Virus record (IMG/VR): IMGVR_UViG_3300047440_000118
Span: 1-62,483 of that record
DNA from: a virus
Taxonomy: Duplodnaviria > Caudoviricetes
DNA: 62,483 nt
Direction: 5' to 3' (one strand)
Part shown: positions 1 to 6,691 of the stretch, one piece after another
Layout: every line of letters begins with the position of its first letter
Position numbering within the stretch: the first letter of the stretch is position 1
Program-made: the position numbers and the translations under genes
The notes under the pieces: generated by a model
Database searches by the model: none
Seen by the model: only the letters and a program-made list of their open reading frames with translations
Told to the model about the DNA's origin: nothing

Positions 1-1
1 C

Positions 2-343
2 ATAGACGGCCTCCGGCATTACGCGTTCAGCCCCGAGACCGCGTTTCAGCCGCATCCCGCGACCTGGCTCAATCAAGCGCGGTGGGAATACGAACCGGAC
101 ACGGCGCCCGTCACGACGCTGCATGAGCGGGGCGATAGTGGCGCCACCCGCAACGTCCGCGACTTCCAACTCGATTTATTGACACCGCTGGATGAGTTAT
201 TCCCGCATGGCGATGACCCCTTCCAAAACGGATCTGGCCCGCGCGCTCGCCTGGGTCACGCGCCTGGCGCTTTTGACCTCTGGGGGCAGGCAACCCCCAT
301 CGCAGGAACAGCTTGGCCTTTACGCGTTGACGCTGGCGACTGA
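2..343 (+). CDS. C-terminal part of a phage replication initiator/replisome organiser-like protein (partial; N-terminal part probably at window end)
   Basis: Frame from base 2 reads IDGLRHYAFSPETAFQPHPATWLNQARWEYE...; PHPATWLNxxRW is a typical C-terminal motif of this family; stop TGA at 341-343. Confidence 0.65.
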   Translation: MDGLRHYAFSPETAFQPHPATWLNQARWEYEPDTAPVTTLHERGDSGATRNVRDFQLDLLTPLDELFPHGDDPFQNGSGPRARLGHAPGAFDLWGQATPIAGTAWPLRVDAGD

Positions 344-863
344 GATGCCGGCGCACTGTCTGACCGATGCGAGTCTGAGCGTGATCGCCAACGGGTGCGA
401 ATATTTCCCGGCTTTCAGCGTGTTGAAGACGGGGCTTGAGGGTTGGATCGTCGAGCGCCAGGCCATCGCCGGAGCGCGAGGAATTGAGATGCCCGCCATC
501 GTTCTCGAACGCATCATGGATGGATGCAACGGCCAACCCGGGCCGAAACTCGCGGCATGGTTGAACGGCAAGGGCGTCTGGCCCGACGATCGCGGTGTGT
601 GGCCTGGCAGCGTCAGGGTGACCGCTGAGCGGGTTGAGGCGGTTCGGGACTGGTCTGACCCTGGCAAGATCGCGGCGGCTCTCAGGGGCCTGCGTGGGCA
701 CCCCAGGGAGGCGATGCTCACCGGGATGCTGCACGGTCTCGTGTCGCGGCACGCGCCGGGGAACCTGCACTTGTTCGATGCCGTGCGGTTGCCCGTTCCA
801 GTCGATTTCCCGTCGCCCGATGACGCGATCGTTATCGACGGCGGGCTTTTTGGGGAGGGATGA
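192..863 (+). CDS. putative helicase loader-like replication protein
   Basis: Follows the initiator; CEYFPAFSVL resembles the FPxxxEI motif of phage loader proteins; ends GGLFGEG. Confidence 0.4.
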   Translation: MSYSRMAMTPSKTDLARALAWVTRLALLTSGGRQPPSQEQLGLYALTLATEMPAHCLTDASLSVIANGCEYFPAFSVLKTGLEGWIVERQAIAGARGIEMPAIVLERIMDGCNGQPGPKLAAWLNGKGVWPDDRGVWPGSVRVTAERVEAVRDWSDPGKIAAALRGLRGHPREAMLTGMLHGLVSRHAPGNLHLFDAVRLPVPVDFPSPDDAIVIDGGLFGEG

Positions 864-864
864 C

Positions 865-1044
865 ATGGCCGCGCACCTGACGATGGTTTCACGTGACGGG
901 TTTTCGCTGACCGAGGCGCTGGACCTCGCCAAACGCATCGGCCGGGGTGAACTGATCCTCGTTGAGCCGATGGACGATGAGGAAGGCGATGTGACCGTTC
1001 GCGAGCGCGATACGATCGTCGCCGCGCTGCGGGCGTTCGCGTGA
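865..1044 (+). CDS. hypothetical protein
   Basis: GGAGG RBS before ATG 865; stop overlaps helicase start (GTGA). Confidence 0.5.
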   Translation: MAAHLTMVSRDGFSLTEALDLAKRIGRGELILVEPMDDEEGDVTVRERDTIVAALRAFA

Positions 1045-3035
1045 GCGACTACGCCGCGTTCCTGGCATCGAAGGCGCCGGCCGACGCGCCGAGCGGCCTG
1101 ACCATCGTGCCGCCCCTGTGTCCCGCCCTCAAGCCGTTCCAGGCGGCGATCACGGCATGGGCTTTGCGCCGAGGACGCGCGGCGATCTTCGCCGGGACCG
1201 GACTCGGAAAGACCCTGATGCAGTTGGAATGGGCGAACAACGTCACGGAACACACCGGCCTTCCCGTGCTGATCCTTTGCCCGTTGGCCGTCGCCGAGCA
1301 GACCGTCGCCGAGGCGGACAAGTGGGGCATCCCTGGCGTGGCCTACGCGGCGGACCAATCGCAAGCGGTGACGCCCATGGTCGTGACGAATTACGAACGC
1401 TTCGAGAAGTTCGACATCTCGCGGTTCGTCGGGATCGTGCTTGACGAGTCGGGCATCATCAAGAGCCACGACGGCGCGACCCGCAAGCTGTTGACCGAGG
1501 CGTGTCGCGATGTGCCGTGGCGGCTGTGCTGCACCGCGACGCCGAGTCCGAACGACTACACCGAGTTGGGTCAGCACTCCGAGTTCCTTGGTGTCATGGA
1601 CGCGAAGGAGATGCTCGCGATGTTCTTCGTCCATGACGGTTCGATCCGCGCGAACGACGCGACACAGGGCAACGACGGATGGCGGATGAAGCGACACGCG
1701 GCGGCTGACTTCTGGCGCTGGCTGGCGTCATGGAGCGTGATGGTTCGCCACCCGCGCGACCTTGGCTTTGACGAACCGGGTTATGACCTCCCGCCGCTCA
1801 ATCTGCATCAGGTCACGGTCGCGGCCGAATACAAACCCACGGCCGGCGAGTTGTTTCCGATGCTGGCATCGACGCTATCGCAACGGATTGGTGTGCGGCG
1901 GGACACGGCGGCTGATCGGATTTCCCATGCTGTAAATATAATTTGTAACCCGGACCACTTTCGTTCTAAATTGCCACCATGCTATCAGACGAAGCAAAGG
2001 AACGACGAAAGGCCGCCGCTCGCGAGCGATACGCCACGGACCCAACCCGCAAACAGGCGGTCAAAGACGCCGCTCTCAAAAGTAGACGAACCGACGCGGG
2101 TAAAACCTACATGCGAGCCTATTACGCCGCTCACAAGATCAATTGGAACAAGAGAACCCAAGAGCAAAGAGATTCTTACAACGCAAAACGCAGGGAAAAA
2201 TACGCCTCTGATCCAGAATTCAGAAAGAAACTCATCGAGCGGGCAAAATCTGTTCCCAGCGGCGCCCCTGAAGAAAAACGAAAACGGCGTCTCAAAGACA
2301 GTTTCGGACTATCAATTGAAGAACATGATTTCATGCTCACCAAACAGGGGTGGGGATGCGGAATCTGTGGGCGAGAACATAGCGATACCACAGGTAGAAG
2401 GTTGGCCGTCGATCACTGCCACCGAACCGGGAACGTCCGAGGTCTTCTCTGCGGTCGGTGCAATAGCGGACTCGGACAATTCGCCGATAGCGAAGAACTC
2501 CTCCGAAAAGCGATCGAATACCTTAATCGTCCACGATCCGGAATCATGGGTAGTTTGGTGCAACCTAAACAGCGAACAAGACGCCCTGGAAAAAAAGTTA
2601 GGTGATAAATGCCTATCGGTGTTTGGCTCGCTACCTTCTCATGAGAAGGTCCGGCGGATTGGCCGATGGATGAATGGGGATAGGCCGATTTTGCTTTCTA
2701 AACCGTCGATTTGCGGCCATGGGTTGAATCTACAAAGATGCCACCGTATGCTTTTCGTTGGTCTGACCGACAGCTTCGAGCAGGTCTATCAGGCCATCCG
2801 GCGCTGCTGGCGCTTCGGTCAGACCCGACCCGTCGAGGTGTATTTCGTCGCGTCCGAACTCGAAGGCAACGTCGTCGCCAACCTGAAACGCAAAGAGGCG
2901 GCGTTTGAGTTGATGCTTGATTCGATGTCAATTCACATGACGGACCTGATGCGCGAGAACGTGATCGGTGGCCGCAACGCGACGGTCATTCAATCGGCGA
3001 ACAAGAGGATGGAACTCCCCGCATGGATCAACTGA
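1041..3035 (+). CDS. SNF2/SF2-type DNA helicase with ~200-aa internal insertion
   Basis: Walker A GTGLGKT, Walker B VLDES, motif III TATP, C-terminal GHGLNLQ and QAIRRCWRFGQ; low-complexity insert between the RecA domains. Confidence 0.9.
   Translation: MSDYAAFLASKAPADAPSGLTIVPPLCPALKPFQAAITAWALRRGRAAIFAGTGLGKTLMQLEWANNVTEHTGLPVLILCPLAVAEQTVAEADKWGIPGVAYAADQSQAVTPMVVTNYERFEKFDISRFVGIVLDESGIIKSHDGATRKLLTEACRDVPWRLCCTATPSPNDYTELGQHSEFLGVMDAKEMLAMFFVHDGSIRANDATQGNDGWRMKRHAAADFWRWLASWSVMVRHPRDLGFDEPGYDLPPLNLHQVTVAAEYKPTAGELFPMLASTLSQRIGVRRDTAADRISHAVNIICNPDHFRSKLPPCYQTKQRNDERPPLASDTPRTQPANRRSKTPLSKVDEPTRVKPTCEPITPLTRSIGTREPKSKEILTTQNAGKNTPLIQNSERNSSSGQNLFPAAPLKKNENGVSKTVSDYQLKNMISCSPNRGGDAESVGENIAIPQVEGWPSITATEPGTSEVFSAVGAIADSDNSPIAKNSSEKRSNTLIVHDPESWVVWCNLNSEQDALEKKLGDKCLSVFGSLPSHEKVRRIGRWMNGDRPILLSKPSICGHGLNLQRCHRMLFVGLTDSFEQVYQAIRRCWRFGQTRPVEVYFVASELEGNVVANLKRKEAAFELMLDSMSIHMTDLMRENVIGGRNATVIQSANKRMELPAWIN
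1979..2605 (+). mobile_element. Endonuclease VII-family putative homing endonuclease encoded in an alternative frame inside the helicase gene
   Basis: CGICG...LAVDHCHRTGNVRGLLCGRCNSGLGQF...AIEYL is the EndoVII signature; basic helical N-terminus; region is AT-richer than its flanks. Confidence 0.9.
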
Positions 3036-4105
3036 CGAACTTAGGCGCGATGCCGCTCATCATGGATCAGGCGTCGGGCGATAACTTCCACATCTGGAAC
3101 GATGATTGCATCGCGGTGATGAAAGGCATCCCAAACGACTCCATTCATATGGCGATATGGTCGCCGCCGTTTTGCTCCCTCTACGTGTTCAGCGACGATC
3201 CGCGCGACGTGTCTAACAACCGGAATGACGCGGTGTTTTTCGATCACTATCGGTTCGTGTTGGCCGAGGTCTTCCGCATCATCAAGCCGGGGCGGCTTAT
3301 CTCGATCCATTGCATGAACCTGCCGACCTCGATCACACGGGACGGCTTCATTGGGATGCGTGATTTTCGCGGCGACAACATCCGGCTTTGTCAGGATGTG
3401 GGGTTCATCTACCACTCCGAGGTCGCTATCCGTAAAGATCCCGTGAGCGCGATGCAGCGCACGAAGGCCATCGGTCTATTGCACAAGCAGGTCGTGAAGG
3501 ACTCCGCGCTGAGCCGGATGGCCATCGCCGATTACATCGTGACGATGCGCAAACCCGGCGAGAACGATAAGCCGATCAGCGGCATCTTCGAGACCTATCA
3601 CGGCGACGACATGACGGACGCCGAACTGACCGCGTATGCCAACGCCAACTATCAGCCGGGCGGCAACCGCTCGCGCGAGGAAAACAAGTCGATCCACATT
3701 TGGCAGCGATATGCCGAGCCGATCTGGACGGACATAAACCAGTCCGACGTTCTCTCCCATCGCGTGGCGCGGGCGGAACACGATGAACGGCACATCAGTC
3801 CGCTCCAACTGACGCCCATTCGCCGCTGTCTGGACCTGTGGACCAATCCCGGAGACGTGGTGTTCTCGCCGTTCGCCGGCATCGGTTCGGTGGGCTACAT
3901 CGCGTTGGAGATGGGCCGGCGGTTCTGTGGCGCGGAGTTGAAGGCGTCTTACTTCCGTCAGGCCGCGTTCAATTTGCGGTTGGCCGAGCGGATGAAGAAC
4001 GACGGCACGCTATTCGATGCCGCTATGATGGCGGATCAATTCGATGAGGCTGACGAACCCGACGAACTTGAAATAGCCGAGGGAGGGCTGTTCGGTGGCG
4101 AGTAA
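3023..4105 (+). CDS. site-specific DNA methyltransferase (N4-C/N6-A family, beta order)
   Basis: Catalytic WSPPF motif N-terminal, SAM-binding FSPFAGIGS C-terminal. Confidence 0.9.
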   Translation: MDQLTNLGAMPLIMDQASGDNFHIWNDDCIAVMKGIPNDSIHMAIWSPPFCSLYVFSDDPRDVSNNRNDAVFFDHYRFVLAEVFRIIKPGRLISIHCMNLPTSITRDGFIGMRDFRGDNIRLCQDVGFIYHSEVAIRKDPVSAMQRTKAIGLLHKQVVKDSALSRMAIADYIVTMRKPGENDKPISGIFETYHGDDMTDAELTAYANANYQPGGNRSREENKSIHIWQRYAEPIWTDINQSDVLSHRVARAEHDERHISPLQLTPIRRCLDLWTNPGDVVFSPFAGIGSVGYIALEMGRRFCGAELKASYFRQAAFNLRLAERMKNDGTLFDAAMMADQFDEADEPDELEIAEGGLFGGE

Positions 4106-4433
4106 ACTGCATCCCGGCGAGTTCGACTGTTACGCCAAAGCCGAACCCGATGAGCCACTGTTCACGTTGCTCGCACGGGACCAGGACGCCGCGACCGTCG
4201 TCAAGCTATGGGCATTTCTGCGAAAACAGCAGATCGAACTCGGCATCCGTCCCGAGTCCGATCGCGCGCAGGTATCCGAGGCGATGCGTTGCGCGACCGA
4301 GATGGAGATATGGCACCGCGCGCATCGTGTCCGCCAGCAGGTCGCCGAGATCGAGTTTGATGATCGCGGCATTCCGACGACGGGCCAGCACGCACGCAAG
4401 GATCGAAACAGCACAAGCGGGGCGTTGGACTGA
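4095..4433 (+). CDS. conserved phage hypothetical protein
   Basis: FDCYAKAEPDEPLFTLLARD motif; translationally coupled to neighbours. Confidence 0.6.
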   Translation: MASKLHPGEFDCYAKAEPDEPLFTLLARDQDAATVVKLWAFLRKQQIELGIRPESDRAQVSEAMRCATEMEIWHRAHRVRQQVAEIEFDDRGIPTTGQHARKDRNSTSGALD

Positions 4434-4618
4434 TGAGCGAATGGCAACCGATCGAAACGGCGCCGATGGATGGTCGCACGGTCCTGGTTTGGGCATCGCC
4501 GTATGACGATTTGCCCGGTTTCCAGACGACCGCCAGGTATCACCCTGACGCGGGATGGTGTGTTGATGAACTGCGTAAGGCGACGCACTGGATGCCGCTA
4601 CCGGAACCGCCGCCGTGA
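4433..4618 (+). CDS. DUF551-like phage protein
   Basis: WQPIETAP...THWMPLPEPP. Confidence 0.8.
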   Translation: MSEWQPIETAPMDGRTVLVWASPYDDLPGFQTTARYHPDAGWCVDELRKATHWMPLPEPPP

Positions 4619-4965
4619 CCCGCCTGCTTGTTTGCGGCGGTCGCGATTACTCTGATTACTGGACCGTGCACGAGGTTCTCGACGGCTTCCACAAGGCCAC
4701 GCCGGTCACATGCCTGATCGAGGGCGGCGCGTTGGGTGCCGATCGGTTCGCCCGCGTTTGGGCGGAGCGCAACGGCGTTCCCGTTCAGACATTCAACGCG
4801 AATTGGGAACGATACGGCAAGCGCGCGGGACCAATGCGGAATTGGGACATGCTCATGGACGGCAAACCCGATCGCGTCATCGCATTCCCTGGAACGTCGG
4901 GGACCGCCAACATGGTCTATCAGGCCAACGTGGCCGGCGTGCCCGTGACGGAGATTATCGAATGA
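4615..4965 (+). CDS. DUF2493/YspA-like SLOG family protein
   Basis: LLVCGGRDY, IEGGALGAD, AGPMRN, VIAFPG motifs. Confidence 0.85.
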   Translation: MTRLLVCGGRDYSDYWTVHEVLDGFHKATPVTCLIEGGALGADRFARVWAERNGVPVQTFNANWERYGKRAGPMRNWDMLMDGKPDRVIAFPGTSGTANMVYQANVAGVPVTEIIE

Positions 4966-5162
4966 CCCGTGGCGACCGCGTGAAGCTGTCCCCGGTCGGC
5001 GCCGACCGCAACCCCGACCTCGCGGGGCAGATCGGCATCGTTGACCTCGTGGACGGCCCAGCGGTCGCTGTGGAGTTCCCGGACTGTGAACGCATGTGGT
5101 TCAAGATCGAATACGTCGAGCCGGAGGACGCGCCGCCGCCCGCGAGGGGGTTGTTCGGGTGA
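4962..5162 (+). CDS. hypothetical protein
   Basis: ATGA coupling to upstream gene; ends RGLFG. Confidence 0.5.
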   Translation: MTRGDRVKLSPVGADRNPDLAGQIGIVDLVDGPAVAVEFPDCERMWFKIEYVEPEDAPPPARGLFG

Positions 5163-5329
5163 GCGCGTTCCGTTGCGCTTTTTGCGGCAAGCCGGCGAAG
5201 CGGCGCATCGAGTGTGACACCCACGATGATTCTGTCGAAATGTTCCGTTGGTATTGCACAACCATGTGCCAGGCGAACCACGAGACGAACCAGATCAAGC
5301 CGCCGCCCGATAGGAGCCTGTTCGGATGA
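5159..5329 (+). CDS. small Cys-containing hypothetical protein
   Basis: GTGA-coupled; CAFC...YCTTMC; ends RSLFG. Confidence 0.5.
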   Translation: MSAFRCAFCGKPAKRRIECDTHDDSVEMFRWYCTTMCQANHETNQIKPPPDRSLFG

Positions 5330-5607
5330 CGGTGAACCTCGACGCCATCTTTGACCTACCGCTCCCCGGTCGCCTCAAGCTGATCCTGATCGACCTCGCG
5401 CGGTTGAGCGACGTGGATGGTTTCGTGCGCGTCAAGACCCGTGACATCGCGCACCACACCCAATGCAACCCCGATAACGTGGCGCACGGTCTCGTGACGA
5501 TGTGCGATCGAGGCTACCTTAAAGCGGACCCGTTCAACCGCAACGGCGTCGTCCGCTCGTGGCGCGTCGATGAGAGGTTCCGCTCGCGCGGGGGTGTCCT
5601 GGGATGA
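5326..5607 (+). CDS. winged-HTH-like protein
   Basis: KLILIDLA...IAHHTQC...LVTMCDRGYL resembles N-terminal wHTH domains of phage replication proteins. Confidence 0.5.
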   Translation: MTVNLDAIFDLPLPGRLKLILIDLARLSDVDGFVRVKTRDIAHHTQCNPDNVAHGLVTMCDRGYLKADPFNRNGVVRSWRVDERFRSRGGVLG

Positions 5608-5996
5608 CCGTCAAGGGCGCCGTCTGGTATGCCGATGGTCACGTCGCGCAGAGCCATCATCTGCCGTGGACAGCCTCCGAGGACGTGATCCTGGGGCGTG
5701 GCTTCATCGACCGCGACCTCGAAGGCAATGCGTTGCATCGCTGGTGTTCCGCGCACGGTCTGCACCGTTCGGCCGGCGCGATCGACCGGCGGCTGGTGGA
5801 GTTATCGTTCTTCGATTCGAAGGTGCCAGTGAAGCACTACCCGGTCGGGCGCGGCCAGGAACGCGGCACGATGGTCAACGGCGACTTCGCCAAACAGGCC
5901 AGGGCATCCGCCGCCGCCGAACTGCGCAATCAGATCCGGCTCGCGAAACTGGAGGCAGTCGCTGGCGTGCCGCCATTCAAGCCAAAGGACGTTTGA
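5604..5996 (+). CDS. hypothetical protein
   Basis: Coupled to both neighbours. Confidence 0.5.
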   Translation: MTVKGAVWYADGHVAQSHHLPWTASEDVILGRGFIDRDLEGNALHRWCSAHGLHRSAGAIDRRLVELSFFDSKVPVKHYPVGRGQERGTMVNGDFAKQARASAAAELRNQIRLAKLEAVAGVPPFKPKDV

Positions 5997-6691
5997 TGCT
6001 CAACCACTGGCAGACGCCCACGATCAATGACCGCATCACCGCGCTGCACGCGGCCGGCGTGTCCTATCGCCAGATGCCCGAGCGCATCTGGTCCGAGTTC
6101 CGCGTGCGCATCACGAAAGGTATGGCTCTGCGCCGCGCCCGCACGCTTGGCATCACGTCGAGCGAAACGACGACGCCACGGCGACCCGCGATCGAGACGA
6201 CCGAACCCGGCGATATCCCCGCCTGGCGCACGCCTGAAGCCGACGCGCTGTTGCGCGTGCATTGGCACGACGGTCGCAGCCAGGCATCCATCGCGCGGCT
6301 TTTCGGCGTAAGCGAAGACGCCATCGATCGGCGGCGCAAGGCGCTTGATTTGCAGCCGCGTCCGAAACCTGAACTCCCGCCCAAGCCAGAGAAGCCATTG
6401 CCCGTGATCGTGCTCGCGCCACCGCCGGTCATCGCCCCGCTACCGCCCGCCGTGGTGGCGCGTGAGCCTGACCCAGGGCCTTGCGACGAGGTGGACCCGT
6501 CAAGAGAGGCGACGGTAGAGTCCACGTCCGTCATGGCGCTCCCCAAGGCCAGGGAATGCGTGTTCCCGATGTGGGCCACGAATGAGCGACCGACGCACGT
6601 CTACTGCTGTGAGCGGGTCTCGGATGGCATCTACTGCGAGGCGCACGCGGGGGTTTGCTTCACACCCAATCCGATCAGGAGACACCGATGA
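5996..6691 (+). CDS. gcrA: GcrA-like regulator with two HTH units
   Basis: Two HTH-like segments, Pro-rich linker, C-terminal CVFPMW...YCC...YCEAH matching the GcrA C-terminal domain. Confidence 0.7.
   Translation: MLNHWQTPTINDRITALHAAGVSYRQMPERIWSEFRVRITKGMALRRARTLGITSSETTTPRRPAIETTEPGDIPAWRTPEADALLRVHWHDGRSQASIARLFGVSEDAIDRRRKALDLQPRPKPELPPKPEKPLPVIVLAPPPVIAPLPPAVVAREPDPGPCDEVDPSREATVESTSVMALPKARECVFPMWATNERPTHVYCCERVSDGIYCEAHAGVCFTPNPIRRHR

Follow-up and report, generated by a model that had tools for sequence, protein, structure and literature searches.

An Endonuclease VII gene overprinted on the stop-free frame of a phage helicase gene: a probable read-through homing cassette

The soil phage record IMGVR_UViG_3300047440_000118 of IMG/VR (62,483 bp, ~96% complete by CheckV; the whole of this stretch is the window in what follows) contains a DNA helicase gene in which 195 codons, free of stops in the helicase frame, are inserted between the two RecA-like lobes, and another frame of the same DNA encodes a complete protein of the Endonuclease VII (EndoVII) family. 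The reading favoured here, to which a probability of roughly 0.8 is assigned, is that of a non-splicing, read-through homing cassette lodged in the helicase gene. A non-splicing homing element in a helicase had also been proposed from the letters of this DNA alone (the sequence-only reading), and its elements held wherever they were open to a test. The features on which the argument turns are the following.

1041-3035, plus strand: phage DNA helicase of superfamily 2 (SF2; SNF2/DEAD-like), 664 aa, without a stop across the insertion

1953-2537, plus strand: the insertion itself, in its helicase-frame reading (aa 305-499), 195 codons without a stop, a linker rich in S, P, T, N and K

1979-2605, plus strand: overprinted open reading frame (ORF) of an EndoVII-family (His-Me finger) protein, 208 aa, in frame -1 relative to the helicase

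The host protein has the two RecA-like lobes and the Walker A, DExx and VI motifs of an SF2 helicase; it matches the Pfam families SNF2-rel_dom/DEAD over aa 32-184 and Helicase_C over aa 498-593, as well as PHROG 62 ('DNA helicase'), and residues G54-K57, D135-E136 and Q584...R591 are invariant in the alignments (A1 and A3) prepared for this work. The borders of the insertion were set by alignment with insertion-free homologs (A1; 146 rows), the check that the sequence-only reading had itself suggested, and fall at nt 1953 and 2537. The insert is flanked by 'AVNIIC' and 'PESWVVW', i.e. it occupies the linker between the lobes, so that the ~200 open codons previously placed between the RecA domains at 1944-2537 become 195 codons at 1953-2537. 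In the AlphaFold model (58-row alignment A3; mean pLDDT, for predicted local distance difference test, 70.7; predicted template modelling score, pTM, 0.69) both lobes reach pLDDT values of 85-97, and aa 324-343 and 345-494 of the insert stay below 50 and have no secondary structure; the disordered linker that had been surmised is, thus, also what the structure prediction returns (pLDDT <50 for aa 324-494). The predicted disorder, the confidently modelled lobes on both sides and the position at a natural domain boundary would explain why the insert is tolerated. Read in the host frame, the insert matches no Pfam family at E<=1, and a comparison of aa 300-500 with 5.8 billion proteins gave 337 word-sharing candidates and no homolog at E<=1e-3.

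The EndoVII ORF lies at -1 (offset +2) to the helicase, so that the host frame is the nuclease frame +1. It starts 26 nt inside the insert and ends 68 nt past it, its last ~22 codons overlapping genuine helicase coding sequence (aa 500-521). That it is a complete EndoVII protein, as first read, is confirmed by a match to Endonuclease_7 (PF02945; E 3.9e-23; score 81.6 bits, the cutoff being 23.6) over positions 2-81 of the 82 of the profile, by matches to PHROG endonuclease VII families (E values down to 5e-32) and, in a phmmer search of the PDB, by Hpy99I (3fc3; E 8.6e-8) and T4 endonuclease VII (1e7d; E 0.004). The CxxC, DHxH and CxxCN motifs align to those of the latter two enzymes, and C127, C130, D145, H146, H148, C158, C161 and N162 are invariant in the EndoVII alignment (A2); from the structural literature on the T4 enzyme, the cysteines (CxxC...CxxC) presumably bind zinc and the Asp, His and Asn residues are presumably catalytic. 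With its zinc and catalytic residues aligned and invariant, the nuclease is probably intact. The phage record contains a single copy of it.

The open helicase frame can be evaluated in the window itself and across related elements. In the window, the probability of finding no host-frame stop is 0.010 when the EndoVII ORF is shuffled synonymously (1000 shuffles) and 0.002 when it is back-translated with the codon usage of the phage (20000 draws), and in other genes of this GC-rich phage stop-free runs of the +1 frame reach 181 codons. Across the related elements described below, the host frame is free of stops in 13 of 14 overprinted cassettes and interrupted by a single stop in the remaining one (L046), as compared with 2-17 stops (median 8, none with <=1) in 68 free-standing relatives and with 7 in a cassette that splits its host gene (L024); stop avoidance, which had been suggested as a check, is what the related loci display. 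The open host frame therefore appears to be kept by selection. The sequence constraint is that of the nuclease frame, the linker sequence itself being unconstrained: identity in the endonuclease frame exceeds that in the host frame in all 66 of 66 cassette pairs (medians 42.7% vs 26.7%). The +2 frame of the free-standing genes, with a median of 13 stops, is worse than the +1 frame, which explains why the host always uses the nuclease frame +1, an offset that is constant across the recurrent cassettes. Two kinds of apparent overlap were set aside in the course of this comparison. The free-standing EndoVII gene L075 has 0 stops in its +1 frame by chance; the 603-codon +1 frame there was considered as a host gene and rejected, as it resembles neither a Pfam family nor a helicase, and the nuclease stands free between other genes. 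Overlaps at offset 2 in L041 and L096 (GC 0.69-0.70) were taken as chance.

A second line of evidence comes from the composition and ancestry of the DNA around the insertion, which divides the helicase gene into the following parts, besides the insertion itself.

1041-1918, plus strand: native 5' part of the helicase (RecA-like lobe 1 and accessory region); GC at third codon positions (GC3) 0.83; ~91% nt identity to locus L010

1919-1952, plus strand: short 5' imported flank; GC 0.33 over 1929-1952; helicase-like residues ISHAVNIICN; TATAAT at 1937-1942

2538-2750, plus strand: 3' co-converted helicase flank, aa 500-570, from the start of lobe 2 through motif V; GC3 0.52

2751-3035, plus strand: native 3' part of the helicase, from motif VI onward; GC3 0.77; ~88% nt identity to locus L011 from ~2760

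GC content drops from 0.64 to 0.47-0.55 between ~1900 and ~2800, and GC3 in the helicase frame is 0.83 over aa 1-296, 0.25 over aa 297-304, 0.57 over the insert (aa 305-499), 0.52 over aa 500-570 and 0.77 over aa 571-664. The same borders emerge from nucleotide comparison, the window being ~91% identical to the insertion-free L010 until ~1918, then diverging, and ~88% identical to L011 from ~2750-2760. The foreign block is, thus, ~830 nt long (~1919-2750), made up of a 34-nt AT-rich 5' flank, the insert and 213 nt of helicase lobe 2. At the protein level, the closest insertion-free kin (P0004, P0005, P0007, P0008, P0010, P0009 and P0028) are 79-93% identical to the window over aa 101-296, only 17-29% over aa 521-545, 48-68% over aa 546-570 and again 80-93% over aa 571-600; the insert-bearing P0083, by comparison, is 55-69% identical over the N-terminal part, 68% over aa 521-545 and 92% over aa 546-570. 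A similar mosaic of the flank is found when the window is compared with the loci. Such a mosaic, in identity as well as in GC3, is the pattern that homing co-conversion produces, and it indicates that the flank was imported together with the insert. The sequence-only reading had seen much of this, placing the block at 1915-2770, an AT-rich tract of ~200 nt (here ~213 nt, 2538-2750) in the resumed helicase and a co-converted flank, which the mosaic now traces over 1919-1952 and 2538-2750.

Insertion-free and occupied alleles coexist among close relatives. Insertion-free kin, of ~470 aa, are abundant, some being up to 84% identical to the window over the N-terminal part. Among the best 120 helicase protein matches, 114 have no insert at the site of the window (site A; four of the 114 have other, intein-like inserts) and six do, namely P0001, P0002, P0029, P0083, P0092 and P0105, the last of which appears to correspond to locus L023, its sequence being contained in the L023 ORF. 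A lack of insertion-free alleles, which had been named beforehand as a finding that would speak against a homing element, is therefore not what is observed. In a quick tree of the unconverted N-terminal domain (FastTree; 146 rows, 296 columns), the states of no insert, site A and a second site (site B, below) require 11 changes, gains and losses not being separable; the window falls into a set of 37 rows with 99% support, 35 of which have no insert, and P0002, P0029, P0083 and P0105 are each grouped with rows that have no insert. The long branches of L035, L037, L045, L030 and L036 in this tree are unreliable.

Within GenBank phages, tblastn gave two one-piece matches across the insert, in the Gordonia phages Malisha and Squiddly.

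L001:1501-3360, Malisha gp71, with the EndoVII ORF at L001:2412-2942: annotated 'DNA helicase' only

L002:1495-3351, Squiddly gp64, with the EndoVII ORF at L002:2403-2933: annotated 'DNA helicase' only

The two helicase coding sequences encode 619 and 618 aa, respectively, and each contains an EndoVII ORF of 176 aa at the same offset, 43% identical to that of the window (BLASTP alignment of 174 residues), the helicases being 39% identical; the same helicase/EndoVII layout is found in L023. Viral contigs queried with the single EndoVII sequence returned five distant matches, all free-standing, and a scan of IMG/VR with the EndoVII alignment A2 returned 487 relatives, the best 80 of which were analysed. 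Eleven of these 80, on at least 10 IMG/VR contigs, are embedded in a helicase that is open in frame +1. Eight stand at the site of the window (L031, L032, which shares its contig with L023, L033, L034, L036, L039, L040 and L046) and three at site B (L035, the nuclease frame of which is intact, L037 and L045), which lies ~50 aa downstream, in helicase lobe 2, within a zinc-knuckle-like loop (CxCG...CxCGH) that precedes the 'VLISKP' motif. A genome collection added the same layout in a contig of a Rhizobium isolate (L112) and in a contig of a Saccharibacteria metagenome-assembled genome (MAG; L113). Patchy presence among close alleles, the existence of empty alleles and co-conversion of the flank are among the features of a homing endonuclease gene. 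Separately from these loci, an EndoVII match in Klebsiella phage PP848843.1 (26707-27117) underlies a feature whose sole annotation is 'tail protein' and could be another embedded or mis-annotated nuclease.

The sequence before the start codon of the nuclease bears on how it might be expressed.

1967-1978, plus strand: pre-ATG stretch TAA ATT GCC ACC, the TAA being in frame with the EndoVII start and 9 nt upstream of it

Most cassettes share a 5' motif, TGnTAAAYTGGCAnC-ATG, the version of the window being TAAATTGCCACC-ATG. No Shine-Dalgarno sequence precedes the EndoVII ATG at 1979, and a consensus promoter scan of 1700-3100 gave 0 sigma-70 sites. Shine-Dalgarno-like motifs precede 2 of 13 overprinted starts and 11 of 49 free-standing ones, and TANNNT stands at -5 to -8 in 5 of 13 and 11 of 49, respectively; both tests are crude and do not discriminate between the two groups. 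As an idea only, the geometry of the 5' motif would suit the -10 element of a leaderless mRNA. A -1 frameshift fusing helicase lobe 1 to the nuclease was considered and rejected, no slippery heptamer being visible by eye and the TAA lying 9 nt before the ATG.

According to the reading as a read-through homing cassette, the block of ~830 nt (~1919-2750) would have been imported by homing, the repair of a double-strand break having copied from an occupied allele the EndoVII cassette (1953-2537) along with the short 5' flank and ~213 nt of donor helicase as 3' flank. Ribosomes would read through the stop-free +1 frame to give a presumably active helicase of 664 aa, the lobes of which are tethered by a disordered linker of ~195 aa rich in S, P, T and N, and translation of lobe 2 and of the coupled methylase would proceed uninterrupted. 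The nuclease would be translated separately, from the ATG at 1979 in the -1 frame and without a Shine-Dalgarno sequence, and would probably cut insertion-free helicase alleles during co-infection, the cassette and its flank then being copied in. The region 2538-2750 is a candidate location for the nuclease target in empty alleles.

Several observations weigh against this reading. Taken by itself, the window gives the open frame a probability (P 0.002-0.01) that is no more than moderately low; the comparison across diverged cassettes is the decisive one. The single stop of L046 replaces a conserved Trp just after the insert, and could be a sequencing error or the mark of a pseudogene. The host-frame insert of the window is closest to that of P0001 (32-41%) and not to that of P0083 (23-24%), the 3' flank being closest to P0083, and among the sampled alleles none is the donor of the whole block. 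For P0001, P0002, P0029, P0083 and P0092, the insert is known at the protein level, their EndoVII frames being putative. Neither a promoter nor a ribosome-binding site is established for the nuclease, and among RNA runs none was found to contain the window sequence. The contigs of two metagenome DNA runs gave no joint across the insert, i.e. no empty allele, a result that is uninformative, as only contigs were available. Finally, two loci show that stops at the site are viable (L024 and L114, below), so that an open frame is not the sole viable solution and the linker is not required. As a separate observation, a 151-nt contig from X2, an unrelated rhizosphere run, agrees fully with the window over 2575-2725, the other helicase pieces of that run being divergent; this is too little to interpret.

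The two loci just mentioned carry a related EndoVII at the site of the window, in a gene that is split around it. In L024 (3492-5338), the N-terminal helicase ORF stops just within the insert and its end is overlapped by an EndoVII ORF of 153 aa, within the last codons of which the lobe-2 ORF begins. The same arrangement of three ORFs recurs in L114 (2-2719; the contig, from a MAG with the label Methanosaeta, is 3.3 kb long), where the EndoVII has 194 aa and lobe 2 is fused to the methylase. The ORFs overlap by few nt and are translationally coupled. To judge from these layouts, the helicase evidently tolerates scission at the lobe boundary, read-through and gene splitting being alternative outcomes. 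Homologs with stops in the helicase frame, which the sequence-only reading had listed among the findings that would count against it, do exist, although read-through in the window is not thereby refuted. They do lend some weight to the least improbable of the alternatives, an unlikely one nonetheless, in which the helicase would function as two associating fragments, or lobe 2 would be made otherwise, the frame being open only for the sake of continued translation; in the polarity version of the same proposal, the open frame would spare lobe 2 and the methylase from premature termination, and a single-chain enzyme of 664 aa would not be needed. Besides the split helicases around a related EndoVII at the same site, the overlap of the helicase stop with the methylase start in the window and the unconstrained linker sequence fit such a scheme. 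The window, however, has no stop that would release an N-terminal fragment. Immediately ahead of lobe 2 there is no evident in-frame start codon accompanied by a ribosome-binding site, and the first in-frame Met on the upstream side is ~60 codons off. The frame is open throughout in 13 of the 14 diverged cassettes, and a single chain is the simplest product.

Less probable again is that the EndoVII gene is not selfish at all, but a domesticated overlapping gene, i.e. a phage resolvase, repair or anti-defence nuclease inherited with the helicase. T4 endonuclease VII, found in the PDB comparison, is a junction resolvase of the same family; the copy of the window is the only EndoVII of a record that is ~96% complete, and the arrangement is old and conserved across phyla. 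A stable inheritance is, nevertheless, difficult to reconcile with the lack of the insert in 35 of the 37 members of the window's clade, with a block of foreign composition that takes in a flank of the host gene and with cassettes at two different helicase sites; moreover, T7-like and other phages carry the free-standing relatives as typical homing-type EndoVII genes in intergenic positions.

The two remaining alternatives invoke splicing, of RNA or of protein. A self-splicing group I or group II intron with an EndoVII ORF, the open frame being incidental, would be in keeping with the frequent residence of phage homing endonucleases in introns and with the existence of unorthodox phage introns that escape sequence rules, the BAKA intron cited in PMC11855218 being one. 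Rfam, however, gave only three weak, unrelated matches over positions 1-6000 of the window at E<=10, none of them within the insert and none to an intron, and no match at E<=1 in 11 related loci; no ribozyme core is, thus, recognized, and the host frame is open. The EndoVII ORF occupies all but ~26 nt of the insert and extends 68 nt past it into what would be the 3' exon, so that neither a ribozyme core nor splicing domains could be accommodated, and an intron does not predict a stop-free host frame in 13 of 14 diverged copies. The absence of intron and intein signatures noted by the sequence-only reading, thus, extends from the window to 11 loci in Rfam and is matched by the Pfam negatives; an intron is very improbable, and the host gene is probably not spliced. 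An intein with an out-of-frame EndoVII-like endonuclease, the insert being removed by protein splicing, is the least credible proposal of all, in that no Hint or intein family matches the host-frame insert (Pfam, E<=1), which is predicted to be unstructured, the junction (...LIVHD|PESW) places Pro and not Cys, Ser or Thr after an insert ending in His-Asp (the usual intein C-terminus is His-Asn), and 195 aa almost fully overlapped by the nuclease ORF are too few to hold splicing blocks, which take ~130-150 aa. It can draw on the probable inteins that this helicase family hosts at Walker A and DExx (P0106 and P0027) and on actinophage inteins in which EndoVII-like homing endonucleases occupy frame 3 (10.1101/2025.01.02.630785).

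The inserts at Walker A and DExx belong to a wider set of observations on the helicase family. P0106 has an insert after reference position 56, at the Walker A motif, with a match to LAGLIDADG_3 (E 1.5e-9), and P0027, P0034 and P0071 have inserts after reference position 135, at the DExx motif, that of P0027 matching Hint_2 (E 3.6e-5, under Pfam's threshold); these inserts are 308-342 aa long and are probably inteins. The helicase gene, having LAGLIDADG_3- and Hint-bearing inserts as well as EndoVII cassettes, would, thus, be a hotspot for several kinds of selfish element. In L018 (3480-4774) and L019, which has the same layout, the helicase ORF stops at ~aa 301, exactly at the cassette insertion site, and is directly followed by the C-terminal third of the methylase, lobe 2 and the N-terminal part of the methylase being deleted; the deletion is possibly the scar of nuclease cutting and illegitimate repair. 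In the window, the methylase gene follows the helicase gene.

3023-4105, plus strand: N6/N4 DNA methyltransferase, translationally coupled, its start overlapping the helicase stop by 13 nt

The helicase-methylase pair is also present in Malisha, Squiddly and L023, and is fused in gp60 of Pacc40.

A broader proposal, somewhat short of an even chance, treats the EndoVII cassettes as one dedicated lineage, that of mobile elements which are read through and in which a stop-free +1 frame encoding a disordered linker takes the place of splicing. The cassette would be portable, with copies sharing the 5' motif at two helicase sites; it would have spread among phages of Actinobacteria and to the Rhizobium contig, flipping between open-frame and split-gene states; the +1 rule, which ShiLan, Pacc40 and the intein-borne EndoVII-like homing endonucleases share, would hold because, over a basic nuclease poor in hydrophobic residues, this is the frame that costs least to keep open; and the cassette may be expressed from a signal of its own, the conserved 5' motif.

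Whichever way the lineage as a whole is viewed, the element of the window is a well-documented case of a probable selfish gene inside an essential-type gene with no sign of splicing, beyond actinophages and with a different nuclease family. It offers a measurable co-conversion tract, free-standing relatives filled with stops as a natural control and sister loci in which the gene is split. The insertion site would be a position at which an SF2 helicase tolerates ~200 extra residues or even scission. For annotators, a low-complexity insert without explanation in a phage replication gene is a reason to check the alternate frames as well.

Among known systems, T4 SegF is reportedly a free-standing endonuclease that drives intronless homing, and in phage Aeh1 the ribonucleotide reductase gene is said to be split by a homing endonuclease gene (genes in pieces). 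The element of the window resembles both in that the nuclease gene stands outside an intron and that the host flank is co-converted, L024 and L114 representing the classical split outcome, and differs from both in that the host gene is unsplit, the nuclease being overprinted on an open frame. The EndoVII-like homing endonucleases described in frame 3 within inteins of DNA polymerase, minor capsid, terminase and thymidylate synthase genes (10.1101/2025.01.02.630785) likewise occupy frame 3 of an open host frame in a phage gene; they are, however, accompanied by splicing domains, of which the insert of the window has none.

A close precedent in concept is the ShiLan domain, an HNH endonuclease encoded out of frame within the open frame of a mycobacteriophage DNA methylase, without a splicing signature (Arsenault, Gosselin, Gogarten, Genes 2025, PMC11855218); the sequence-only reading had invoked it, and the precedent is real. 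The likeness comprises an insertion in a phage gene of DNA metabolism, a host frame without stops, no intron or intein signature, an unstructured host-frame product, a patchy, homing-like distribution, no evident ribosome-binding site and the same frame relation, host = endonuclease +1, which is stated there. The host of ShiLan is a methylase and that of the window a helicase, and the ShiLan nuclease is an I-HmuI-like HNH enzyme with zinc fingers (Table 1 of PMC11855218), whereas that of the window is an Endonuclease_7 (PF02945) protein, the two being set apart here by their descriptions. With respect to ShiLan, the element of the window adds a co-converted flank of 213 nt, a second site, split-gene variants and spread beyond actinophages.

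A second case of a hidden out-of-frame nuclease, Pacc40 gp60 (section 3.6 of PMC11855218), is closer in host. The N-terminal part of gp60 is homologous to the helicase of the window (35-39% identity over window aa 4-241 and 498-639), and within this helicase part lies a hidden ORF of 159 aa in the same relation, host = endonuclease +1. The site, however, is at window-equivalent aa ~241-247, ~55 aa upstream, the nuclease is AP2/PacI-like (Table 2 of PMC11855218) and the host, in which an intein is present as well, is a fusion of helicase and methylase. With a nuclease already reported in a homologous helicase domain, the helicase host, correctly identified in the sequence-only reading, is less new than was implied there. 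No literature report of an EndoVII-in-helicase element was found, the supplements of the published surveys being places where such cases may be listed; 'Endonuclease VII' has 0 occurrences in the available text of PMC11855218, and Malisha and Squiddly are absent from the available parts of both that article and 10.1101/2025.01.02.630785.

With a complete nuclease ORF in an alternate frame and a stop-free host frame kept in diverged copies, the element belongs to the class of hidden out-of-frame nucleases exemplified by ShiLan and Pacc40 gp60, and the concept, published in 2025, is unchanged by it. What differs is the nuclease family, the insertion site, the occurrence in environmental phages and a Rhizobium contig besides actinophages, and a clear co-conversion tract.

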